Shown here: positions 5,312-60,535 of the stretch, one piece after another | Layout of the letters: each line of letters opens with the position of its first letter | How positions within the stretch are numbered: the stretch's first letter is position 1 | Origin: Mycobacteriales bacterium | Lineage (GTDB): Bacteria > Actinomycetota > Actinomycetes > Mycobacteriales > QHCE01 | Length of the DNA: 64,000 nt | Direction of reading: 5' to 3' | Assembly (NCBI GenBank): GCA_041743105.1 | Contig: JBGTNI010000010.1 | Coordinates: 13,589 to 77,588, forward strand | Position numbers and translations under genes: made by a program | Notes under the pieces: generated by a model | Seen by the model: the letters and a program-made list of their open reading frames with translations, nothing else | What the model was told of the DNA's origin: nothing | Databases searched by the model: none

Positions 5312-5364
5312 GCTTGTTTGCCCCGCACGGCGTGTGAGGTAAGCGCGGTACGGATGAAGTACGC

Positions 5365-5417
5365 GACAACTTGTGCCATGTTGTCCCTGGTCTTGGGATA
5401 GCATGGCACAAGTTGTC
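5365..5417 (+). terminator. 16-bp perfect inverted repeat after peptidase 2
   Basis: gacaacttgtgccatg (5365-5380) pairs with catggcacaagttgtc (5402-5417), with a 21-nt loop. It could be a terminator or an operator. Confidence 0.4.
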
Positions 5418-5433: not shown

Positions 5434-5600
5434 TAAGAGTGTCTGCCAATAGGTCGTTCGTTGCGAGGTGGTTCCTGGTCGAGGATGGCAAGGCGGAGAA
5501 GGAGACCATGCTGGATGCATGGGCGACGACGACAACGCCGCCAGCCGAAGCGCCAGGGAACACCGCAGTAGAACAGTTACCTATTGGCAGACACCCTTAA
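5434..5600 (-). repeat. MITE/REP-like element, family A copy 1
   Basis: Ends are taagagtgtctgccaataggt (5434-5454) and acctattggcagacacccttaa (5579-5600). Its reverse complement aligns over most of its length with 30938..31120. Confidence 0.8.
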
Positions 5601-5887: not shown

Positions 5888-6066
5888 TCAGGTGGATGAC
5901 TGGCAAGGCCGCAGCGAGCGCCAGCCCTCGGTGGGACGCTGGAATCCAGGTGGATGACTGGCAAGGCCGCAGGAGCCGACGCCTACGCTATGCTCACGGC
6001 CGGCTCGCAAGCTGCGCCGGGCATAGGCGAGGCGACGAGAACGCCGCCAGGCGCCGCCTGGAGCCA
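5888..6066 (+). repeat. REP-like element, family C copy 1 (with internal duplication)
   Basis: It contains the family core ggcaaggccgcaggagcc. The 26-nt segment caggtggatgactggcaaggccgcag occurs twice (5889-5914 and 5947-5972). Confidence 0.65.
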
Positions 6067-6069
6067 GCG

Positions 6070-7140
6070 TCACCCTAGGCGGCGGTGGAAGAGGTCCCTA
6101 AGTTCGCGTAACGCCGCGTCGATCTCCTGCTCGAAGTAGCCACCCTGCACCAGCGTGAACTGGCTGGGGTCGAAATCGGCGTCAGTAACTTGAGCGCTGG
6201 CTTGACCGCCCATGGCAGCAGCAATAGCATCCCACAGCCGCTCCACCTGGGAGGGCTCGTATCCGCTGCCGAAGCGGCGGAGTTTAAACGTATCCTGTAG
6301 CTCGGAGAGTCGATCTTTGTCCGCTTGGATGAATGGGGAGACATCCCCACCGTAGGTGGGCACTTCCACGGTCATTTCGGTCTTGCCGTGTCGCGGCGCG
6401 TAAGGGTCGACGCTGGGCCTGGGGGCCGAACGGGCCACACCATTAGATCGCGCCACGCGTGCGGCGACGCTGGACGGCGCCGCCGGTCCTGGAGACACCG
6501 CTGGGACATCGGCCGCAGTGGAGGGCCATCCGGCGGGCGACACTGCCGGTCCAGGCATTGGGCGTGGCGTGGCGTTGCGTGAACGCGGCCGGGGAGCAAC
6601 GGGGCTGGAACTGGGCGCCGGACGTGAACGCGGTGGCTCAGCGGAGTTTGCCCCCATGCCGCGTGTGGTCACTTGGTCGTCAGGATACGTGCCGGTGACA
6701 CTGGAGGGCACAACACGCGGCGCTGCGCCTAAATCAGCAAAGGACAGGTCGTCATCGGAGGCGCTGGATCGGTAGATCCCAGGGGAGAACTCCACCTCTT
6801 CAGGTGTGCGCTCAGCCGCCACACTCGAGCCAACCGTCAACGCAAGGGACTTGCGTTGACCCAAGGCAGGAAAGCCACTGGAGCCTCGCACCGAGCCGGG
6901 ATCGTCCATGAACTCTTCCAGCTGGCGCTCCAGTCGGTCGAGTTCCATGTCGACATGCCACTCGTCGTAGCCGCCCCATCGGGTCTTGAAGATGACGTCG
7001 CGGACTTCGTCGGGGCCCACGGGGTCGGCGATGGCTTCACCAGCGAGTGTGGCCTCCACGCGGTCAAGAAAGTTATCGACCTCGTCAGCTTTATACCCAC
7101 GACGTAGTGCACGCCGCTTGAACCGCTGGCCCCGCTCCAT
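6070..7140 (-). CDS. DivIVA-domain repeat protein
   Basis: Trimmed to ATG at 7140 (MERGQRFKRRALRRGYKADEVDNFLDRV). A second DivIVA-type motif, FKLRRFGSGYEPSQVERLWD, lies near the C-terminus. A Pro/Ala/Ser-rich linker separates them. Confidence 0.65.
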   Translation of the reverse strand: MERGQRFKRRALRRGYKADEVDNFLDRVEATLAGEAIADPVGPDEVRDVIFKTRWGGYDEWHVDMELDRLERQLEEFMDDPGSVRGSSGFPALGQRKSLALTVGSSVAAERTPEEVEFSPGIYRSSASDDDLSFADLGAAPRVVPSSVTGTYPDDQVTTRGMGANSAEPPRSRPAPSSSPVAPRPRSRNATPRPMPGPAVSPAGWPSTAADVPAVSPGPAAPSSVAARVARSNGVARSAPRPSVDPYAPRHGKTEMTVEVPTYGGDVSPFIQADKDRLSELQDTFKLRRFGSGYEPSQVERLWDAIAAAMGGQASAQVTDADFDPSQFTLVQGGYFEQEIDAALRELRDLFHRRLG

Positions 7141-8740: not shown

Positions 8741-8788
8741 GGATGTCCTTAAGTGTGCGGGCGGAATCATTGTAGGTCTGAGCTGAGC

Positions 8789-8942
8789 GGTCATCAGGTG
8801 TTTCCTGCCAAGGCCGCAGGAGCCGCCGTGTACAGCTGTGCATTCTAACTTCCGTCCACGCCAGCGGAATGGTACACAAGGCGAGAGCCCGGGTGCGGGT
8901 GTCCCGCATGAGCACAGCGCCGGCAAGGAGCACCTGATGACC
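8789..8942 (+). repeat. REP-like element, family C copy 2 (pyrH-frr intergenic)
   Basis: Terminal inverted repeats are ggtcatcaggtg (8789-8800) and cacctgatgacc (8931-8942). The core is ccaaggccgcaggagccgccgtgtaca. It aligns with 51416..51565. Confidence 0.75.
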
Positions 8943-8943
8943 G

Positions 8944-9759
<816 letters not shown>

Positions 9760-10679: not shown

Positions 10680-10819
10680 GACTCACTTTCTTTCCGATTT
10701 GTCTGCCTAAAGCGACCACCACTAGGTTACTGCCTAGGCCACGGGAGCCACCGCGTGCACATAGTATGGCAAGGCGGCTCAGGATATCGGAACGTCGGCA
10801 GGGGCCTAGTAGACGATGA

Positions 10820-18009: not shown

Positions 18010-18324
18010 TTACAGGTTCAGACTCAGGTCCAGATCCAGATTTAGACCGTCGTCATTGTAGTTATTCCGGTCGTATGAGCGGTGGTGCCGGTCTTTCCAG
18101 TTGTCGTGCGAGCTGTGGTGCCGGTCGCAGTTTTTGTGCCAGCGATCTTTCCAGTTGTCGTGCGAGCTGTGGTGCCCATCGTTCCAGCTGTTGTGCGAGC
18201 TGCGGTGCCGATCGTTGTCGCCTAGGATGTTGAGGCTGGCCGATGCCGGAGCGGAAACGCCCACAGCGATACCGGTGGCCATCACCGTTGCTACGGCAGC
18301 CATGGCAAGTTTGCGATAACGCAT
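18010..18324 (-). CDS. secreted His/Trp-rich repeat protein
   Basis: Trimmed to ATG at 18324 after aaagg. Signal peptide MRYRKLAMAAVATVMATGIAVGVSAPASA. The mature part holds 11 His in repeats HHSSHDNWKDR. Confidence 0.6.
   Translation of the reverse strand: MRYRKLAMAAVATVMATGIAVGVSAPASASLNILGDNDRHRSSHNSWNDGHHSSHDNWKDRWHKNCDRHHSSHDNWKDRHHRSYDRNNYNDDGLNLDLDLSLNL
18092..18209. repeat. 54-nt period tandem repeat inside the His-rich gene
   Basis: tctttccagttgtcgtgcgagctgtggtgcc occurs at 18092-18122 and 18146-18176, with a degenerate third copy at 18180-18209. Confidence 0.75.
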
Positions 18325-18712
18325 ATCTTTACCTTTCAGTTCGGGTGGCGATCCGGCTTCTTCGTCGCTTCCCGCGAAGCTGGACCTTTCGTGCACGAGA
18401 GTGTCCTCTCGACTCTTACATTCGCGGTATTACCCCGATCGGTTGGCTCCGAACCAAAGTATTTCTGGAAACATTTATTACCCACAGCCACTCGCCTGAA
18501 CAAAACCGATCGTGCCGGCGTATTCCGCGCCGAGGTTGACCGGCTTGCCGCGGCCACCAGGACCGCCTTTATTCTGATCACGGGTGGTCGGCTGCTCATT
18601 CGGCGGAACAGCGGCGAAGTGCTGCTGCCATCTGAGGCCTCCCGTCGCACATCGACTGATCGAATATCTGGCACAACGGCGCGATAGGCCCAAAAGTGTA
18701 GAGAGGTGCGCT

Positions 18713-21247: not shown

Positions 21248-22038
21248 CAGGCTTACTCCGCAGCGAACATCTCAAAATCACCACCACCAAGGTCTGGTGG
21301 GTCATGCTGCTCGGGCTGCTGGGGATCCTTGCGCTTGCGCTGCTTATCAATGGTGTCATCACCGCCAGCGAACTCGACAATGACTTCAGCGACCAGTCGT
21401 TAAACCAGTTAGCTTCCAGCCTCTACACCTCCGGCCAATATTTCGGAGTACTGTTCGCGGCCATCTTGGGCACACTGCTGATCACCAATGAATTCCGCCA
21501 CCAGACGGCCACATCGACCTTCCTGGCCACACCCAGACGGATAGATGTCGTGGTCGCCAAGTTCGTGGTTGCGGTGGGCTGGGGAGTCCTCTACGGCCTG
21601 ATCTGCACTGTGATCGCTATACCGGTCGGCGCGGCCATTCTCAGTGGTCAAGGCGAGGAATCGGCCCTAGGAGAGGGTGCCGTACTCAAGGCGATTCTGC
21701 TCAACTTGTTGGCATTTGGGGTCTGGGCGATATTGGGAATCGGCATCGGCACTCTGTTACAGAATCAAGTCGGCGCCGTAGTCACACTCATCGTGGCGTA
21801 CTTTGGCACGCAGGTCGTCGGCGCGCTGTTGTCTGGTTTAGGAGAGGCGTGGGATCTGAGTTGGCTCGCTGGGGTGTATTACTACCTGCCCTATGGCGCT
21901 ACCCAGGTGATGACAAGCGCGGACCAGATCGCAGACAACGCTCCGGCCTGGTGGGGCGGCATGCTCATGGTGCTGCTCTACGGCGCGGTAGCCGCGTTCT
22001 TGGGAAGCTGGCTCACCGCCAAACGGGACATCACCTAG
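21244..22038 (+). CDS. ABC-2 type permease
   Basis: ATGA overlap with the ATPase stop. Product MTGLLRSEHLKITTTKVWWVMLLGLLG has six hydrophobic segments. The ORF-track start at 20848 is an over-extension. Confidence 0.7.
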   Translation: MTGLLRSEHLKITTTKVWWVMLLGLLGILALALLINGVITASELDNDFSDQSLNQLASSLYTSGQYFGVLFAAILGTLLITNEFRHQTATSTFLATPRRIDVVVAKFVVAVGWGVLYGLICTVIAIPVGAAILSGQGEESALGEGAVLKAILLNLLAFGVWAILGIGIGTLLQNQVGAVVTLIVAYFGTQVVGALLSGLGEAWDLSWLAGVYYYLPYGATQVMTSADQIADNAPAWWGGMLMVLLYGAVAAFLGSWLTAKRDIT

Positions 22039-22045
22039 GCCACCA

Positions 22046-22138
22046 CCAATAGGTTGCTGCCGTCGTTCCAACGTTTGAGCCGCCTTGCTCTACTCTACGC
22101 ACGCGGCGGCTCCTGCGGCCTAGGCAGCAACCTATTGG
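22046..22138. repeat. short palindromic element with CCAATAGGT termini
   Basis: ccaataggttgctgcc (22046-22061) pairs perfectly with ggcagcaacctattgg (22123-22138). It shares the terminal core with family A. It may double as the ABC operon terminator. Confidence 0.6.
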
Positions 22139-22211
22139 ACGGCGCCCTAACGCCATAACAATCGCCATCACCCGACGCACGGCGTCTGCTACGGCCCAGT
22201 AACCTAGAAGC

Positions 22212-25979: not shown

Positions 25980-26770
25980 GGTAGCTTCTTGGGGCCAGAT
26001 TGATTCCCAGTCCCACCAGTCCCACCGGGACCCTGGATCATTCCAGGTTTGCCGTTCGCCGGATCTTTTCCTCCAGAGGGACGCCGACGCATAAGGCGAC
26101 CAGCTTTGGCGGCAAGCGGAAACGCTACTAGGTCATAAATTCCGCGTAGGTCATTCCCAACACGCCGCGACAACGGTGTACCAATAACTTTCGCTTCAGC
26201 GGTTCGCATGCGCAAAATTTGCCGGATCGCTGAGGTTTCCGGCTCCTGATCGGGAAATAGATCGTCTTGGATTCGGATGATTTCATCAGCCAATTTAAGT
26301 AATTCTTCACCACTTCCTACCACGCTTGGACGGTAGCGCTGCCTATTACCCAAGGATTCATAGTGTAATACCATTACACTATGTTCATTCAAGCCCTCCA
26401 TGCCGCCGTAAAGGTGGCTTTTCAGAAGATCTGGGAACGATGCGGCTTCCAGGAGCTGCGAGTTCTCCAGTATCTGCTCTCCCAGCCCTTATGGACTCAA
26501 TGTAGTCCCGAAAAGCTTCCCTAAGAGGGCCTGGAACAGGGAGCTCTGTTTCTGTCAGGCTATGTGCGGCCGCGAGATATTTTTCTGCTGCATCTTGTTT
26601 AAATGCTCTAATTGCCTGTAATTGAGCTCCTCTACGCGACTTATCCCCATAAAATTTTAACAAGGTAGTCTCACAAACGTAGATTTTAATTACAGGCGCA
26701 ACAAGTTTTCGCTTGAGATGCAAAGCATCTTTAGCAGAGAAAACTCGACTGCGCTGCGTAAATCGAACTT
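25976..26770 (-). pseudogene. AT-rich frameshifted remnant of an unknown gene
   Basis: ORFs 26385..26723 and 25976..26401 join into one sensible reading (..FRDYIESI | GLGEQILENSQLLEAASFPDLLKSHLYGGMEGLNEH..) if a 1-nt frameshift near 26481-26495 is allowed. There is no ATG/GTG start, and a stop lies immediately upstream at the qor end. The region is visibly AT-richer than its flanks. Confidence 0.5.
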
Positions 26771-26777
26771 CTCGATC

Positions 26778-27779
26778 TCACGGTGCGTGGTCGAGCACGA
26801 CCTTGCCGAATGTTTTGCCCGACGCCAGCCGGGCGAAAGCCCGCGCGGCGTCGCCGAACGGATGGATGCTATCGATCAGGGGTCTGACATCGCTACGAGC
26901 CAGCAGATCCAGCAGGCCGCGCAGCTCCTGCCGGGTGCCCATCGTGGAGCCGAGGACCTCTAACTGCCGATAGAAAACCCGACGAAGATCCAGAGTAGGC
27001 AGGTGCCCCGAGGTCGCACCGGAGACGACCAATCGACCACCGGGTACCAGACATTTCAACGAGTGGGCGATGGTCGCCGCTCCGACGGTGTCGACGACCA
27101 CATCGACTCGCTCGGGAGCTCTGTCCCCAGGTTCGAGCGCCACCGCACCCAACTCGATAGCCCGCTGCCGCTTGAGCGGGCTTCGACTGGTGACGTAGAC
27201 CCGGGCGCCCAGCGCACGTCCGATCAGCAGCGCCGCGGTCGCCACCCCTCCCCCAGCTCCTTGAATGAGAACACTGTCGTCGCGACCGAGCCGCCCTTTG
27301 GTGGTGAGCATGCGGTATGCCGTGAGCCACGCCGTCGGCAGGCATGCCGCCTCGACGAAGGACAGTTCGGGAGGCTTGGGGAGCAGATTGCCGGCGGGAA
27401 CCAAGACCCAGTTGGCGAGCGTGCCCGGATACTTCTCTGACAGCAATGAGCGATCAGGAGCAAACAGCGGATCGCAATCTCCGGCAACGCCGTCCGTCGC
27501 GTTCTCGGACACGTCCCCGATCACGGCGTGAACCACGACCTCGTTGCCACGTTCATCCACACCGGCGGCGTCGGTTCCCAACGTCATCGGGAGCTGTTCG
27601 CGGCGAAGCCCCACGCCACGCAGCGACCACAGGTCATGATGGTTGAGCGCGCTGGCGCGTACAAGTACCCGCTCCCAGCCCGGTGGAACCGCCGGTTCGG
27701 CTAGCACACCGACTTGCAGCCCCGCCAGAGGCTCTGTGTCAGATTGGGTAGCTGCGTAAGCCGCGATGTAGTCAGACAT
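26778..27779 (-). CDS. zinc-type alcohol dehydrogenase / quinone oxidoreductase family protein
   Basis: MDR family layout with the Rossmann stretch LIQGAGGGVATAALLIGRALGARV. Confidence 0.75.
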   Translation of the reverse strand: MSDYIAAYAATQSDTEPLAGLQVGVLAEPAVPPGWERVLVRASALNHHDLWSLRGVGLRREQLPMTLGTDAAGVDERGNEVVVHAVIGDVSENATDGVAGDCDPLFAPDRSLLSEKYPGTLANWVLVPAGNLLPKPPELSFVEAACLPTAWLTAYRMLTTKGRLGRDDSVLIQGAGGGVATAALLIGRALGARVYVTSRSPLKRQRAIELGAVALEPGDRAPERVDVVVDTVGAATIAHSLKCLVPGGRLVVSGATSGHLPTLDLRRVFYRQLEVLGSTMGTRQELRGLLDLLARSDVRPLIDSIHPFGDAARAFARLASGKTFGKVVLDHAP

Positions 27780-27800
27780 AGGTGCATCGGGAGAGCATTG

Positions 27801-30192: not shown

Positions 30193-30346
30193 TCGGTAGC
30201 GCATATCGCGGTTGGCGCGGCGATCCGCGGCGTTCTCGTCGTCGCGCATAGCCCACTATGCGTCTCCTCCTCGGCCTTGCGGCTCATCCACCCCATCCCG
30301 CGCTTCGCTCCCACTCCAGGGGTAATGCTTCAACCCTTCTAGGCAA

Positions 30347-30745: not shown

Positions 30746-30937
30746 GGGACTCCCAGCTGTAGGGCGTTGGATCAGGGAGGTGGCGGAAGTTAGCTAGTTG
30801 CGAAGTTAGCTAGTACCGTCCAGTCGAGTATCGCAAGGCAGACGACGACCGCGTGCCGGGGCACGCGGGAGGAGGACAACACCGCGAGACGAAGCGCTGG
30901 GGGACACCGAGCCCAACAGTCCTATAGCTGGGAGCCC
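30746..30937 (+). repeat. MITE-like element, family B copy 1
   Basis: Ends are gggactcccagctgtagg and cctatagctgggagccc. It aligns with 34194..34355 and carries an internal duplication of gaagttagctagt. Confidence 0.8.
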
Positions 30938-31120
30938 TTAGTGGTCGCGCGGATAGGTAACTGTTCTACTGCGGCGCTCCCTGGCGCTTCGGCTGGCTGC
31001 GTTGTCGTCGTCGCCCATGCATCCAGCATGGACTCCTTCTCCGCCTTGCCATCCTCGACCAGACCAGCGCACCCTAACTTCGGCACCTCGCAACAAACGA
31101 CCTATTGGCGCGACCACTAA
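30938..31120 (+). repeat. MITE/REP-like element, family A copy 2 (abuts B1)
   Basis: Ends are ttagtggtcgcgcggataggt and acctattggcgcgaccactaa. It aligns with the reverse complement of 5434..5600. Confidence 0.8.
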
Positions 31121-34193: not shown

Positions 34194-34355
34194 TAGGGCT
34201 CTCGGCAGTAGGGCGTTGGATCAGGGAGGTGGCTCCCGGTCGAGTATCGCAAGGCGGACGACGACCGCGTGCCGGGGCACGCGGGAGGAGGACAACACCG
34301 CGAGACGAAGTGCTGGGGGACACCGAGCCCAACAGTCCTACTGCCGAGAGCCCTA
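34194..34355 (+). repeat. MITE-like element, family B copy 2
   Basis: Perfect 19-bp terminal inverted repeat, tagggctctcggcagtagg / cctactgccgagagcccta. Its last bases supply the stop codon of the 34353..35120 gene. Confidence 0.85.
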
Positions 34356-35120: not shown

Positions 35121-35138
35121 GGCGGTGAGTGTATTAAA

Positions 35139-35344: not shown

Positions 35345-35436
35345 TACTCGGCGCGGGTGCTGCCTCTCGCGGGAGACTGACTCTTAAGCACACATGCACA
35401 CATGCGTCTTTGACAATGTGAGGAACTTTATCGAGA

Positions 35437-42474: not shown

Positions 42475-45327
42475 CTAGCAGGGCGGCAGCTTCCCCCGCT
42501 CTATACCACTGGTCCACGCGTACGGAATGAAGGCGCCGTTGTCCAGGCGAAACCATTCCGTGCCTTCTTTGTTGCCGTTGTACATCCAGGATGTGATGTG
42601 CTGACCCTGGGCTTGGCAGGTGGCGGTGATGGGTGTGCCGTGGGGGAGAGGGCCGAGCATCCGGCTCTGCTGGCTGGACTCTTCGAAGGTGCGAATTCCG
42701 CCGTTGCAGTAGTCCGGGTTCGCGGTGCCCGCACTCACGCACGCCACCGTACCGCTGCCCCCGGCCGGCGGCGGCGGTGCAGGTGCGGGTGCCGGTGGCT
42801 GTGTCGGTTGGGGTTGCGGTTGGGGTTGGGGTTGCGGTTGGGGTTGCGGCTGCGGTTGGGGTTGCGGTTGGGGTTGCGGCTGCGGTTGGGGTTGGGGTTG
42901 CGGCTGCGGCTGCGGTTGGGGCTGTGGCTGCTCGCCGGGCACCAGCACCATGACAGACCGACCGGGTCCAGTTCCGGCCTCGTTGACGGCGGCAACCGTG
43001 ACCGTGATGGTCTGCCCCGCCGGCAGCCCGGTCAGCTGCTCGCTCATAGCGTTCCTACCATCGGCATTGGAAACCGGAACAGTGCGCCGCAATCCGGTGT
43101 CGGTGCTGACGGTATAGCCGGTGATAGGTTTGCCGTTGGTGATCGGCGGTGTCCACGAAACGTTCACCGCGCCCGGGCCGGCACCTTCGGCGCTCACTAT
43201 CGGCGCACCGGGGCTGCTGAACGCGTCGACCGGGTCACTGGGCTGCGACGCATCGCTCGACGCGTTGTTAGTCAGCGTGACCACCACGGTGAAGGTGTAG
43301 CTCGCGCCCATCGTCAATGACTCGGCCTTCACCGTGTAGCCGATAGGGCCCGTAGCGCTCGCAGAGTCAGGAGGGTCGATGTTGTCGATCACCACTTGGC
43401 CACCGGCGGTGCTGGTCTGGCCGGTGAGCTGATAGGAGCGCACGGTGCCGCCGTTGGTCTCCGGTGGCTGCCAGCTCACCGAGATACTGCCGTCGGGTTG
43501 GCCGCGACGGTTGGCCTCTGCGGTTACCGAAGTGGGAGGATCGGGCACTACTGACGTGGGGGTGACCGGGTTGGCCTTGGCGGCCTCGCCCTCACCCTTG
43601 GCATTCACCGCACGCACCGAGAACTCGTACGCCTTGCCGTTAGTCAGCCCGGTGACGTTCACCGAACATGGCTTGCCGGCCGCACAGGTATTTCCGGCTA
43701 CCTCTACTGGTCGGAGACCGCCGGTGACGATGTATTTGGTGATCGTGCTACCACGTGGGTCGGCGGGGCGCCACGAAATGATCGCGGATTCGTCACCGGC
43801 CTGCGCCCCGACGTTAGTCGGCGCGGTCGGCGGCAAGGAGTTCTCGGCCTGTTCGTCGGGGTCGGGAGCTGGTGAGCCGGTGTCGCCCGGCTCCGGACGC
43901 TCCGGTGTCCGATCCGTGCCGGGAACCCGCGGCAAATCGGGGAGTCGCGGCTTAGAGATCTGCGCACCGTCCCCCTGGCCGGCTTCCTCGCCTTGGCCGT
44001 TCCCATCCCCCTGCCGACCGTCGCGATCTTGACCCGGCTGGGTGTCGTTCCCACCGTTGTCGCCGTTGCCGTCTTGACCGTCAGTTGCCCTGGGGTCCAC
44101 GCGCCGGTTCGGGCCTTCGCCATTGACGATGTCTTTGGGTGCTTTCGCCAGCTCGGTGACCTTGTGCTTCTCATCGATCACCCAGGCCTTGTTGGTCCCC
44201 ACCGAGTTGATGACCAGGTGGTCTTCCCGGTTCTCCAACTCGACCTTGCCGCCGGGGTCGTCGATGTCTTCCAGGCTGTTGCCCCGCAAGTCGAAGACCC
44301 GCACTCGGTTGGCTTGCTCGTCGGGCACATACAAGCGTTCGGAGAACGCAATGGCCGGGCCGATCTTGTCGCCGACACCGGGAATAGACACCGCCCGTGC
44401 GTCATCGTTATCTACCAGCACCACTTTACGATCGTCGGGGTTGGTGATGGCCACGGTATCTCCGCGCACACGACTGAGCATCACGGCCTCGCCGACGTCG
44501 GGGAGCTCCATGGATGACACCGAGCCATCGGCCTTAGCCTTGATTAAGGTGTTCTCAGCGCGGTCGACCACGGCGGCACCGTGATCGAGCACGCCCATCG
44601 ACCACTTGTGACCGGCACCACCGACGGAGACTTCACGCTCTACCGACGGGCTCTTGCCGCCGCTACCAGGTCTGATCGCTACGGCTTTTCCAGCCTTGGG
44701 TGAACCGACCCAGAGCAGGCCGTCGTCGTCGAACTCCCCGCCCACCAAGTTCGATCCCTCGCCCACTAAGTCCGACGAGAGCTTAAACGCGCGACCCCGG
44801 GGTTCCATCTTGCCGGCCTCGAGCTGGCGGAACAGACCATTAGCGGTATCGACGAGCATTACGTTCGAACCGAAGAGTGCCACGCTCATGTCGGCAGGCG
44901 AGGAGGTGGAAGCGACCCCGGAGACATTGAGCGTGCTCAGCTCCACGGAGGTTATGGTCCCGGTTTCGAGATCGTGCAGCAGCAGGTGTTCGTCGGTCTG
45001 TATCACCCTGACCCGATGGCCACGGGCATCCGACAGCGAGCGACGCATATCTACCTGACCCGCTGACGCGTTGATCCTCACCGCCTCGCTTCGATTGCCG
45101 TCCCACAACCAGATCGCACCGTCGGTTAGCGACAATGCTCGGCTGACAGCCCCGGCGCCGAAGAGAGTGATTACCATTGCCGCAACAGTGGCGATAATTA
45201 CACCAACTGAGACAAATCCCCCGGCGCCTCGACGCGAAGAAGTTGGCAGGCGTCGACGAAGACTCCTCGCCAAGCGCCCACGCTGCCGAATGGCACGGTC
45301 GTCGGCACCGACCACGGAGGTAGCCAT
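42475..45327 (-). CDS. single-pass membrane protein: ~350-aa ectodomain, 3 FN3 domains, (PQ)20 spacer, Cys-containing C-terminal domain
   Basis: Arg-rich cytoplasmic tail and a TM segment (FVSVGVIIATVAAMVITLF). Three FN3-like units are recognisable (..ISWRPADPRGSTITKYIV.., ..VSWQPPETNGGTVRSYQL.., ..VSWTPPITNGKPITGYTV..). The C-terminal ~95 aa carry 4 Cys. Confidence 0.7.
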   Translation of the reverse strand: MATSVVGADDRAIRQRGRLARSLRRRLPTSSRRGAGGFVSVGVIIATVAAMVITLFGAGAVSRALSLTDGAIWLWDGNRSEAVRINASAGQVDMRRSLSDARGHRVRVIQTDEHLLLHDLETGTITSVELSTLNVSGVASTSSPADMSVALFGSNVMLVDTANGLFRQLEAGKMEPRGRAFKLSSDLVGEGSNLVGGEFDDDGLLWVGSPKAGKAVAIRPGSGGKSPSVEREVSVGGAGHKWSMGVLDHGAAVVDRAENTLIKAKADGSVSSMELPDVGEAVMLSRVRGDTVAITNPDDRKVVLVDNDDARAVSIPGVGDKIGPAIAFSERLYVPDEQANRVRVFDLRGNSLEDIDDPGGKVELENREDHLVINSVGTNKAWVIDEKHKVTELAKAPKDIVNGEGPNRRVDPRATDGQDGNGDNGGNDTQPGQDRDGRQGDGNGQGEEAGQGDGAQISKPRLPDLPRVPGTDRTPERPEPGDTGSPAPDPDEQAENSLPPTAPTNVGAQAGDESAIISWRPADPRGSTITKYIVTGGLRPVEVAGNTCAAGKPCSVNVTGLTNGKAYEFSVRAVNAKGEGEAAKANPVTPTSVVPDPPTSVTAEANRRGQPDGSISVSWQPPETNGGTVRSYQLTGQTSTAGGQVVIDNIDPPDSASATGPIGYTVKAESLTMGASYTFTVVVTLTNNASSDASQPSDPVDAFSSPGAPIVSAEGAGPGAVNVSWTPPITNGKPITGYTVSTDTGLRRTVPVSNADGRNAMSEQLTGLPAGQTITVTVAAVNEAGTGPGRSVMVLVPGEQPQPQPQPQPQPQPQPQPQPQPQPQPQPQPQPQPQPQPQPQPTQPPAPAPAPPPPAGGSGTVACVSAGTANPDYCNGGIRTFEESSQQSRMLGPLPHGTPITATCQAQGQHITSWMYNGNKEGTEWFRLDNGAFIPYAWTSGIERGKLPPC
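42808..42927. repeat. hexanucleotide tandem repeat encoding (Pro-Gln)x20
   Basis: 20 consecutive CCN-CAR units counted codon by codon on the minus strand. Confidence 0.9.
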
Positions 45328-51415: not shown

Positions 51416-51565
51416 GGGCCGCTCCAGGTGTCGGCTGGCAAGGCCGCAGGAGCCGCCGCGTACACGGCCGGAGCGCAGCGGGGGAAGTACGCAAGGCGAA
51501 CGCCCGGGTGGCGGGTGTGTCCAGCACGAGCATTGGGCCGCCGGCGGGCAACTGGTGGGGCCCTG
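51416..51565 (+). repeat. REP-like element, family C copy 3 (MoxR-DUF58 intergenic)
   Basis: ccaggtgtcggctggcaaggccgcaggagccgccgcgtaca...gcaaggcgaacgcccgggtggcgggtgt aligns with 8789..8942. Confidence 0.7.
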
Positions 51566-58321: not shown

Positions 58322-60535
58322 TCAACCCCTCAAGTCCCGTGCGGCGCGACCACGTTGCGCGCTGAGCCGTCGCGGCAAACGTGCCCGCTCCGCCGTGGTG
58401 TCATCGTCTGCCGCCGAGCGAGCGTCCCACACGGCGTACGCGTCGACGATCTCACCCACCAAACGGTGACGCACGACATCTTCGCTGGTCAGCGATGAGA
58501 AATGCACGTCATCGACATCGCCGAGAATCTCGCGGACAAGTTTGAGACCGCTGTGGGTGTTGCCGGGTAGATCCACCTGCGTAATGTCGCCGGTTACCAC
58601 GATCTTGGACCCGAAACCTAGCCGGGTTAGGAACATCTTCATCTGCGCCGGTGTGGTGTTCTGCGCCTCGTCGAGGAGTATGAAAGCGTCGTTGAGCGTG
58701 TTATGCGTCAACAGGTAATCCTCGGTGACATAGAGTGCATCAGCTGCCGCCACCTGGATGCATACCGTCTCCGCCCGCCCTGCGGGTTCGATGCTGTCGA
58801 TGAAACGTAGCGGCCGGCCGCCACCTTCGGCGGCGTGGTACTTCTTCCGCTTACGGGTGAGACGGAAAGGTTCAACGCCGGCGGGAAGACGGATGTCGAT
58901 GATGTACGCATCATGGCGATAGCCAATCTCACGGCCGCGCACCTGGCCCGATTTCCTTCCCTGCACTGCCCGGCGGCGGACATACGCCACACCACCCAGC
59001 GATCGGACCAGACGGATCACGCCGTCCCTAAGCATTGGCGATGTGGTGGTGTACTGGACGCGGCAGGTCCGGTCGACCTGGATGACCGGTCCACCATCGG
59101 CGTCCAGCAACCCATTGAGGACAGCGAGACGGACCGCAGCGCTGTTGTAGAGGTAAGCATCCGGAATGAACTTCGAGTGTGAACGAGTGCCCAGCAAGTT
59201 CAACGAGCGCAGTGCTCCGGTCACCGGGTTCTCCAGTGTGACGACATCACCAGATGCCCTCACACGGTTGAGGGTGTAGTTCACTCGGTCCTTCCACCGC
59301 ACCTTGACCCCTGGGAGGAGCAGCTCTAGCGCGGAGACGAGTTCCGGATCCTCGGTGGCGAAGGCGGGAGTGGTCGAACCCGTCAGGCAGCCGTCACCAA
59401 GTAGCAGGCCGAGGGCATACGGTTCCATGGGGATCTTTAGTTCGGGGTGGCACACTGGTGCGGTAAGCAGCGGTAGTTCGTATCGACGGGCATGGGCGGC
59501 ACGAAGGTTACCGATCATTTCCTTGGTTTCGAGGACGCGCCAGGGCTTGCCGCGACGGCGATCAGACGCCGTCGCGACCGTCCAGAGGTGATCGCCGCAG
59601 CACAACGTTGAGGCGTCGTCCTGAGCTGTGACGCGGTACACGTCCTTCTCGCCTTGCGGAAACACACCAAGAACCGGGGTCGGTTCCCCGTTAGAGCCGA
59701 TGACGAGATCACCTATTTCCAAGCCACCGATCGGGCAGAAACCGTTTGGAGTCAGTACTTTAGTGAAGATAGGTTGGGCACGTCCCCGCATGTACGCCAG
59801 CGGCGCGACCTCGATGGTTCCGGCTTGCATTAGCCGCGGGATCGAGTCGGCGTCGAGCATGTCGTGCAACGCATCGTAGAGCGGTCGCAGATAGGGGTCG
59901 ATTTTCTCGTACAGCGTCCCCGGCAAATACCCCAGCCGCTCCCCAGCTTCGACAGCGGGGCGCGTGAGAATGATGCGGTTCACCGTCTTGGCTTGCAGTG
60001 CCTGCACCGCCTTGGCCATCGCCAGGTAGGTCTTGCCGGTTCCCGCCGGCCCGATGCCGAAGACAACCGTGTGAGCATCGATCGCGTCCACATAGCGCTT
60101 CTGGTTCAGGGTTTTAGGACGAATAGTGCGACCACGACTCGACAGTACGTTCAGCGTGAGCACATCAGCGGGACGTTGACCGTCGGTGAGTGGGGTAGCA
60201 AGCATGTCGATGGCGCGACGGGCAGCGTCCGGCGTCAGAGGCTGATCGCGCTCGATCAACGCAAGTAACTCGCGAAAGATACGTTCGGCTAAGGCATTCT
60301 GTGCCGGCGTACCGGTGAGGGTAATTTCGTTTCCCCGAACCAGAATGTCGGACGCGACAGCACCCTCGACCACTTTAAGGATCTCGTCACCGGAACCGAG
60401 CAGGCTCATCATGTCGGCCGGGCCTACCACCATACGGCTCTGCTGTGTGGTCCCGATATCTGGAACATGCGGGTGTGCTGCGGCATGGTCGGTAGGGGGT
60501 CGTGCGACAGGTTCTGACATATGGTTGCCGCTCAT
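58322..60535 (-). CDS. phoH: PhoH-like ATPase interrupted by an intein
   Basis: Walker A GPAGTGKT. The sequence ...APLAYMRGR | intein | [15 protein letters not shown]... is interrupted. The ORF is 737 aa, and removing the 360-aa insert leaves 377 aa. Confidence 0.85.
58700..59779 (-). mobile_element. intein (Ala1, ...THN/T junction) with LAGLIDADG homing-endonuclease domain
   Basis: Residues 253-612 of the ORF. It starts AQPIFTKVL and ends YLLTHN, followed by Thr+1. LAGLIDADG-type motifs [10 protein letters not shown] and [10 protein letters not shown] are present. Junction codons were checked base by base. Confidence 0.75.

Follow-up and report, generated by a model that had tools for sequence, protein, structure and literature searches.

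Related TA-flanked MITE-like elements with covarying ends and a conserved core in an uncultured Mycobacteriales-like actinobacterium

Results

The DNA analyzed here (the window, 64,000 nucleotides in all) comes from an uncultured Mycobacteriales-like actinobacterium. Pfam searches of approximately 50 ORFs indicated that the window is ordinary actinobacterial chromosome. It contains rpsB-tsf-pyrH-frr-cdsA, xerC, ku, ligD, kgd, a malic enzyme gene, whiB and znuABC, along with uppS, recO, era, ybeY and phoH. An initial annotation of the window had noted that it contains no transposase, and the Pfam searches of the ~50 ORFs bear this out. The same searches detected no gene for a reverse transcriptase, an HUH/Y1 enzyme or a RAYT. 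All of the repeated elements that we describe in the window are intergenic.

Five copies of two repeats, A and B, had been recognized in the window. We found all five where the initial annotation had placed them, and we set their exact limits after separating the flanking TA dinucleotides from the elements. The copies, with the strand on which each folds (the forward strand) and the score of each against a covariance model, are as follows.

5436 to 5597, + strand: A1 (181 bits)
30746 to 30937, + strand: B1 (150 bits)
30939 to 30940, no strand: TA dinucleotide between B1 and A2, common to the abutting ends
30941 to 31117, - strand: A2 (175 bits)
34196 to 34353, + strand: B2 (157 bits), with an empty site in the related locus L109
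35137 to 35344, - strand: B3 (89 bits)

A and B elements are approximately 160-210 nt long, with measured lengths of 158-208 nt. In nearly every copy, the two ends complement each other over 19-25 bp. No ORF frame common to the copies was found, and the elements are non-coding. In A1, the closing stem is the terminal inverted repeat, AGAGTGTCTGCCAATAGGT / ACCTATTGGCAGACACCCT, and TA lies on both sides of the element (5434-5435 and 5598-5599). A2 is likewise flanked by TA, at 30939-30940 on its 30941 side and at 31118-31119, as is B3 (35135-35136 and 35345-35346). B2 has a clean TA duplication (34194-34195 and 34354-34355), and its right TA is part of a TAG stop codon (upstream minus-strand gene). 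B1 is flanked by CA on the left and by T plus TA on the right.

We found that the end sequences quoted in the initial annotation were exact and that, as it had described, ends are complementary within a copy and different between copies (B1 compared with B2, and A1 compared with A2). The outer stems of B1 and B2 differ by 3 fully compensated pair changes in 14 bp. The ends of A1 and A2 are clearly different, and each pair is self-complementary. The internal sequences had been called highly similar. This is true of B1 and B2, which are 93% identical across their shared 122-nt 3' part, and of the cores of A1 and A2, which are 96% identical over 110 nt. It is not true of B3, an old, decayed copy that is far more diverged and has an enlarged internal hairpin. 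The optional module GAAGTTAG... is carried by A2 and occurs at the same position in B1 and B3; in B1, the optional GAAGTTAGCTAG module is present as a tandem duplication. A 21-nt degenerate core motif, RGTCGAGKATSGYAAGRCNGA, occurs 5 times in the window, compared to an expected 0.07.

We also confirmed that B1 and A2 are directly adjacent. Only T plus TA (30938-30940) lies between them, and A2 is inverted relative to B1.

A and B had been described as unrelated. We found that they are homologous along the whole core. A1, read on the + strand, and A2, read on the - strand, aligned with B over the whole core. The core-only global alignment of A with B had a score of 102, compared to 12.4 +/- 4.8 for shuffled sequences (z = 18.6). 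In the other orientation, the score was no different from that of shuffles. Motifs common to A and B include TAGG.CGTT, GAGGTGG, GGTCGAG.AT.GCAAGGCGGA, GACAAC.CCGC, CGAAG.GC, ACACCG and AACAG. Because A aligns with B over the core and the optional module is at the same position in both, the abutting pair does not consist of unrelated elements. B1 and A2 are two diverged relatives of one superfamily, lying tail to tail in inverted orientation.

A single covariance model finds all of the copies. Built from 17 copies, it recovered all 17 and also two families, D and E, that have the same core motif and other ends.

L055, 5996 to 6175: family D, same core motif, different ends
L003, 1242 to 1415: family E, same core motif, different ends

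The window contains additional related elements. Family C is a second, related repeat family with six copies in the window, and there are also a short hairpin element and a fragment of the superfamily core.

1303 to 1441, - strand: C1, long family C member
5363 to 5417, no strand: short hairpin element GCGACAACTTGTGCCATG...CATGGCACAAGTTGTC
5947 to 6074, + strand: C2, family C-like, a weak covariance match (14 bits)
8786 to 8945, + strand: C3, long family C member, in the pyrH-frr spacer
10719 to 10812, + strand: C4, short family C member, in the rpsB-tsf spacer
22038 to 22147, - strand: C5, short family C member, upstream of kgd
30213 to 30290, - strand: core-only superfamily fragment (45 bits, model positions 60-139)
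51417 to 51562, + strand: C6, long family C member, in the spacer between moxR and DUF58 genes

A duplicated fragment of the 5' end of C2 lies at 5889-5916. The closing stem of C3 is 24 bp long and has G.U pairs on the + strand. That of C5, CCAATAGGTTGCTGCC, resembles the closing stem of family A, and C5 has TA on both sides. The fragment at 30213-30290 consists of GGATGAGCCGCAAGGCCGAGGAGGAG, a hairpin and GACGACGAGAACGCCGC, with no clear ends visible. The short hairpin at 5363-5417 is ~18 nt from A1 and ~16 nt from the TA that flanks A1, and its stem also closes a C-like element upstream of kgd in a related genome, QHCE01 (L111, 3772-3862). In all, there are at least 12 elements in 64 kb (five A/B copies and at least seven related elements), or approximately 1 per 5 kb. 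The 12 window copies are divided between the strands, with 7 on the + strand and 5 on the - strand.

Among the genome-collection matches listed, true homologues were found in two metagenome-assembled genomes (MAGs), JBBSOC01 ('Mycobacteriales bacterium LS6_sbin.2') and QHCE01 (an Antarctic 'Acidimicrobiales' MAG). Both are uncultured. Together, the two MAGs contain at least 13 copies. In a syntenic block, the identity between the two is ~91%, and the window is syntenic with JBBSOC01 at ~76%. The other 94 loci among the matches listed were chance matches in coding DNA (VEDGK codons). A metagenome scan gave a single chance match and no relative, a viral scan and a plasmid BLAST gave no match, and looking through the literature by sequence motif gave matches only to unrelated primers. 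Among the matches listed, the family is restricted to a small uncultured lineage, and by these searches it appears to have no sequence similarity to any curated or deposited element searched. We found no autonomous partner, that is, a transposase gene with the same ends, in the window or in the related loci examined. The examined loci also had no long-range inverted repeats with these ends and no multi-copy ORF.

We found that the elements are mobile, as copies are present in one genome and absent from the corresponding site in a relative. The filled site of copy L055b reads CCGGT-TA-[GAGTG...GCGCTCT]-TA-AATGG, and the same site in L001 is empty and reads CCACT-TA-AATGG. The reciprocal case was also found: L055 has an empty site where L001 has a copy, and the two differ by one TAA to TGA transition in the duplicated TA, within a stop codon. 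The filled site of B2 reads CAC-TA-(GGGCTCTC...GAGAGCCC)-TA-AGGGCACGG, and the empty site in L109 reads CGC-TA-CGGGCACGG. The B1/A2 site is free of elements in L056, L108, L109 and L111, where the spacer is 36-92 nt. The three clean empty sites (in L001, L055 and L109) have a single TA and no palindrome resembling the stems. Therefore, the variable ends are the element's own terminal inverted repeats, and insertion duplicates TA.

These empty sites bear directly on one of two readings offered in the initial annotation, in which the invariant cores are the true elements and insert into the loops of existing host palindromes, such as terminators. Stems do differ between copies with similar cores, and there is a parallel in IS1111/IS110-type elements, which target REP or attC hairpins. 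In addition, a weak 9-bp hairpin (CTTTAGGGG..CCTCTAAGG) can form in the empty B1/A2 spacer of L056, a distant relative, and the stem GCGACAACTTGTGCC closes two different interiors, one in the window and one in L111. However, in L108 and L109, which are closer relatives, the B1/A2 site is only 36-59 nt long and has no such hairpin, and the full stem belongs to the inserted DNA. Furthermore, identical stems with identical cores were found at 4 and 6 unrelated loci in two genomes: in the MAGs, the end stem AGAGGTCGCGCGGGTTGG.. recurs at four unrelated loci and AGAGTGTTCGGTAGTTGAT.. at six. Because identical end stems recur at several unrelated loci, we conclude that stems travel with the element. 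Insertion of a core into a pre-existing palindrome is rejected on the three single-TA sites, by the very test that the initial annotation had named, and we find it scarcely credible. The absence of a palindrome at the empty sites (L001, L055 and L109) also sets the elements apart from those of the IS1111/IS110 type that target hairpins.

TA was found on both sides of 10/17 copies and on one side only of 6/17, with CA, GA or TC on the other side of the one-sided copies. Overall, TA made up 26 of 34 flanks, compared to 2.6% of the dinucleotides in the window (p about 1e-26). The first base after the TA differs between copies (AGAG.. or GAG..). We considered a 3-bp TNA/TWA duplication of the IS1031/Harbinger-like type, and this fits only 5/17 copies. 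TA is preferred because it fits 10/17 copies on both sides and all three empty sites. B2, the L001 copy, L055b and L015 are inserted on the TA of a stop codon and regenerate the stop. Separately, an abutting end similar to that of B1 and A2 was seen after L055a.

The small size, the lack of coding capacity, the terminal inverted repeats, the TA on both sides and the presence or absence of copies in related genomes all support the earlier description of these elements as MITE-like.

In every copy, the terminal repeats close a rod-like fold (z-scores of -4 to -8). The rod contains several helices and, in addition, an internal helix that is purine-rich and conserved, an apical hairpin that varies and modules that are optional. 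In the purine-rich helix, 5' GCAAGGCGGAGGAGGAG is opposite GACGACGACAACGCCGC, and G-C pairs alternate with G.A/A.G mismatches. The strands of this helix are exchanged between A (GGAGGAGGAG / GACGACGAC) and B, with a G-C to C-G swap at three positions. The forward strand was more stable than its complement in 5/5 window copies. For example, the predicted fold of B2 was -99.5 kcal/mol for the forward strand compared to -87.2 kcal/mol for the complement (z about -8).

We found that the paired positions covary. RNAalifold, run on the alignment of 17 copies, predicts 51 pairs. Across these pairs, 96.8% of cells were paired, compared to 83.6% in column shuffles (0/500 shuffles reached the observed value) and 31-47% when partners were slid by 1-3 columns. 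Double changes occurred in 26/51 pairs, internal helices included, compared to 15.9 expected, in a sample of ~20 copies that are related by descent. Among near-identical copies, the apical hairpin switches between CATGC/GCATG, CATACC/GGTATG and CATACT/AGTATG; CATGC/GCATG versus CATAC/GTATG is one of the double changes in internal helices. The covariation in the closing stem and in the internal helices, together with the strand specificity of the wobble pairs described below, supports the other reading in the initial annotation, that compensatory changes keep a long stem.

In addition to the internal covariation, the unpaired motifs are invariant between A and B. Thus, the core is more constrained than the terminal repeats, and this conserved core is common to families with quite different ends. 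MITEs usually show the opposite, with terminal repeats better conserved than the core, and the strength of the interior conservation relative to the ends is unusual.

We found that the tolerance of mismatches is strand-specific. A transition in either arm of a stem is equally likely to give G.T or A.C, and so a difference between G.U and A.C is informative. In all predicted pairs, there were 88 G.U cells, in 24 columns, compared to 11 A.C cells, every one of which was a singleton. In the closing stem, the register of which is independent of the fold prediction, 7 G.U columns were common to at least 2 copies and there were no such A.C columns. The ends of family E provide three more G.U pairs. 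Since G.U pairs are shared and A.C pairs are singletons, one particular strand must fold. This pattern means that, in the lineages that multiplied, a mismatch is tolerated only if it leaves the forward single strand (RNA or single-stranded DNA) able to pair. The covariation is best accounted for by selection that requires one strand to fold, whether it acts on propagation or on persistence.

Complementarity could also be kept by mutation alone. Correction of imperfect inverted repeats by template switching is an established mutational pathway. If template switching during replication ('quasipalindrome correction', or arm-to-arm conversion) keeps the arms complementary, then the fold need have no function. 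Double changes between near-identical copies, which affect the closing stem as well as the small apical hairpin, are consistent with this, as are modules and arms that look reassorted (L055b has an L015-like left arm and an L084-like right arm). However, template switching predicts perfect pairs and no asymmetry, yet G.U persists in multiplied lineages and A.C never does. The invariant unpaired motifs and the conserved non-Watson-Crick, purine-rich helix of A and B are also left unexplained. Based on these results, we regard a purely mutational origin of the pairing as quite improbable.

A fold of this kind might instead belong to a non-mobile, multi-copy family of host RNA genes (6S-, Y- or sRNA-like), with stems that covary like P1-type helices. 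The strong covariation, the conserved loops, the G.U pairs and the rod-like fold of 160-200 nt (z of -4 to -8) are all as expected for such an RNA. The distribution of the copies is not: insertions are present or absent between 91%-identical genomes, copies are flanked by the TA duplication, there are ~12 per 64 kb, and they lie in operon spacers and on stop codons in mixed orientation. Furthermore, a transcript that includes both arms has to be initiated outside the element, in unrelated DNA, and no promoter or intrinsic terminator consensus was found in the elements. Rfam searches of the whole window at the gathering threshold gave 0 matches, and in E-value mode all element types gave only chance hairpin matches (plant miRNA precursors and VA RNA). 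No relation to tRNA or tmRNA was found. A host RNA family therefore seems very improbable to us. Relative to neighboring genes, the window copies look mostly antisense and the copies in the MAGs are mixed. The mixed orientation of copies in the related genomes therefore gives no support to an RNA that acts in cis for the host.

Two more specific candidates were considered and rejected. A bacterial Y RNA beside Ro/Rsr was considered, and the neighboring 473-aa protein proved to be an HD-domain phosphohydrolase and does not belong to the TROVE proteins. A small encoded peptide was considered, as A-type copies have GGAGGAGGAG followed by ATG, but no frame is conserved across copies or families.

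Discussion

We think that A1, A2, B1, B2 and B3 probably constitute one superfamily of small, non-coding, non-autonomous, TA-duplicating MITE-like elements that are moved in trans and whose ends and interior are kept as a folded rod. This is a new family of a known kind of mobile element, not a new kind of system.

A transposase encoded elsewhere would move these elements in trans. Given the TA duplication and the GAG/GGG ends, the enzyme is presumably IS630/Tc1-mariner-like or IS5/IS427-like. Propagation or persistence would be limited to copies that can fold as the forward single strand (RNA or single-stranded DNA), and this requirement would keep the ends complementary while the sequence of the ends drifts. 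B1 and A2 would abut because a second element landed in the TA next to the first, and the TA at 30939-30940 is likely the target of that second insertion.

A DDE transposase that binds double-stranded DNA, on its own, leaves two observations unaccounted for: the covariation of end positions that it does not contact, and the tolerance of G.T and not A.C. These observations might indicate that mobilization depends on structure and uses no classical DDE enzyme. The elements would then move as RNA or as folded single-stranded DNA, the latter through an HUH/Y1-type enzyme like those of IS200/IS605, PATEs and REPIN/RAYT. What is recognized would be the structure formed by the conserved core and the paired ends. 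The two TAs would not be a true duplication: one would be the site cleaved in the target and the other a cleavage site carried by the element. Several findings are consistent with such a route: the tolerance of G.U/G.T on one strand only in copies that have multiplied, the covariation through the whole element, the conserved unpaired motifs common to families with different ends, and a core more conserved than the ends. In addition, the identity of elements between genera (85-93%) is greater than that of syntenic housekeeping DNA (~76%). REPINs have the same compensatory pattern; their hairpin is kept by frequent compensatory changes, a single-stranded intermediate has been proposed, and they are thought to move as single-stranded hairpins (PMC3116915). 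Other findings point away from a single-stranded route. IS200/IS605 elements have no terminal inverted repeats and form two local end hairpins without end-to-end pairing. No HUH, RAYT or reverse transcriptase gene is in the window, and the elements have no GTAG/REP doublet. The 12 window copies have no strand bias, unlike the lagging-strand-dependent IS608-type elements. Finally, the symmetric TA-[inverted repeats]-TA arrangement is the classical signature of cut-and-paste. We judge mobilization without a classical DDE enzyme to be possible but, on balance, unlikely.

More specifically, the folded core (the GCAAGGCGGAGGAGGAG / GACGACGACAACGCCGC helix and the invariant loops), combined with end pairing on one strand, could mark propagation through a folded single-stranded intermediate (RNA or single-stranded DNA) and a putative enzyme that recognizes it. 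Such a structure-guided transposition system would differ in type from classical TA-duplicating DDE elements, IS200/IS605 and REPIN/RAYT. We hold this to be a rather doubtful proposition.

The elements form a clearly delimited new family of bacterial miniature mobile elements, in an actinobacterial lineage about which little is known (MAGs from Antarctic and other soils). Their density is high, and copies lie inside core operons (rpsB-tsf and pyrH-frr) and on stop codons. They are also a clean natural case of a MITE interior that is more constrained than the terminal repeats, with the terminal repeats evolving by compensated, strand-specific changes. This makes it testable, for MITEs, bcr repeats and REPINs, whether the hairpin is needed for transposition (a single-stranded stage) or has an RNA role at the level of the host. 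Repeats of this kind will break assemblies and will mislead searches for non-coding RNAs or terminators in these genomes.

TA-duplicating MITEs linked to IS630/Tc1-mariner-type transposases include RUP of Streptococcus pneumoniae, Correia/NEMIS of Neisseria and Stowaway of plants. These are 100-250 bp long with terminal inverted repeats, form one long hairpin, and are intergenic and inserted beside genes. The elements described here are alike in these respects, and they have the TA target duplication characteristic of MITEs derived from IS630/Tc1-mariner. They differ from RUP, Correia and Stowaway in three ways. Conservation is higher in the core than in the terminal repeats, which covary with strand-specific wobble. 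Instead of a simple spacer, the interior has several helices and conserved loops. No partner transposase was found in the window or in the related loci examined.

IS5-family elements (the IS427 and IS1031 groups) and PIF/Harbinger-Tourist elements have GAG/GGG ends, 2-4 bp duplications that contain TA, and YTAR-like targets such as CTAG and TTAA (ISfinder family table). The elements here may be similar. In contrast to IS5 and PIF/Harbinger, the 3-bp TNA/TWA duplication fits few of our copies (5/17), whereas TA is on both sides of 10/17.

General features of MITEs have been described (PMC10969869, PMC3184786). Bacterial MITEs generally form long hairpins; folding of MITE transcripts and gradual decay of the direct repeats have also been described (PMC10969869). 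The bcr1 element of Bacillus is a mobile intergenic repeat whose structure is maintained by compensatory changes (PMC3184786). The bcr1/bcr repeats of the Bacillus cereus group resemble the elements described here in that they are ~155 bp long, intergenic and non-coding, have a non-conserved genomic distribution and are flanked by direct repeats (PMC3184786). Unlike the elements here, bcr1 has a 5-bp direct repeat instead of TA, is found in Firmicutes and has been shown to be transcribed; there is no sequence similarity between the two.

REPINs, which depend on RAYT (Y1/HUH), are also non-autonomous and multi-copy. However, they are near-perfect REP doublets with highly conserved ends and no TA duplication, and known REP/RAYT systems have a 5' GTAG-type motif. 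The asymmetric core, the variable ends, the TA duplication and the absence of a Y1/HUH gene from the window place the elements outside the REPIN/RAYT group. Similarly, their ends pair over 20-25 bp with TA on both sides, which is not the arrangement of PATEs derived from IS200/IS605.

The attC sites of integrons are a further point of comparison. Like the elements described here, they have a structure that is conserved over sequence, with arms that are complementary within a site and different between sites, and they are folded, strand-specific substrates for recombination. The elements here have no RYYYAAC/GTTRRRY boxes, cassette arrays or integron integrase. Conservation in attC sites is at the outer ends, whereas in these elements it is the interior that is conserved.

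Repeats related to families A and B

We found six copies of a further repeat family, family C, in the window:

1303-1441, family C copy
5947-6074, family C copy
8786-8945, family C copy
10719-10812, family C copy
22038-22147, family C copy
51417-51562, family C copy

The family C core is CTGCCAAGGCCGCAGGAGCCGCCG...GCAAGGCG, and the long closing stem, with its G.U pairs, differs copy by copy among the six. Copies are present in the core-operon spacers rpsB-tsf and pyrH-frr and upstream of kgd. In 5/6 of the copies, the strand rich in G.U pairs runs antisense to the neighbouring genes. Long C copies contain CTAACTTC, which is the GAAGTTAG module of the A and B elements read on the opposite strand.

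The spacer upstream of kgd contains a C-like element both in the window (22038-22147) and in the related genome QHCE01 (locus L111, 3772-3862). These two elements are in opposite orientation and their closing stems differ. The difference reflects either repeated insertion at a hot spot or inversion of the core between inverted ends.

Locus L055, from a related genome, contains a fourth family (D) and a solo element end:

L055 6001-6170, family D element, TA-GTGTTGTGTAATCGAT...ATCGATTACACAACAC-TA
L055 6461-6475, solo element end TAAGAGTGTCC, 5 nt past the end of element copy L055a

The family D core, GCAAGGCGGAG / GACAACGCCGC, is the same as in families A and B. Because the solo end is so close to L055a, elements abut in L055 as well.

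A-type copies from the window genome were 85-93% identical to those of two uncultured genomes, JBBSOC01 and QHCE01 (L066, L079, L106). In contrast, syntenic housekeeping DNA was only ~76% identical between the window and related locus L056. This greater identity in elements than in genes implies that the whole element is strongly constrained or that the family has recently spread by horizontal transfer.

Other features of the window

Two repeats lie inside coding sequences, and two other genes were of note:

18056-18214, direct repeat CGGTCTTTCCAGTTGTCGTGCGAGCTGTGGTGCCGGTCG (33-39 nt, 4-5 copies), inside ORF 18010-18396 (minus strand)
26778-27779, minus strand, zinc-dependent alcohol dehydrogenase-like gene
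42756-42935, degenerate tandem array GGTTGGGGTTGCGGT... (6/12/18-nt periodicity), inside ORF 42475-45327 (minus strand)
58322-60535, minus strand, PhoH-like ATPase gene, approximately twice the usual length

The tandem array encodes a Pro/Thr/Ala-rich linker of a 950-aa fibronectin-type-III protein. The 128-aa product of ORF 18010-18396 had no Pfam match.

The alcohol dehydrogenase-like gene is part of a ~1.7-kb segment (~26000-27800) separating kgd from the next conserved gene. This segment is an indel: the syntenic regions of L056 lack it, and L109 (another related locus) lacks most of it.

The PhoH-like ATPase has a LAGLIDADG_3 domain at residues 468-530, flanked on both sides by PhoH stretches, and its gene is most likely an intein-containing phoH.
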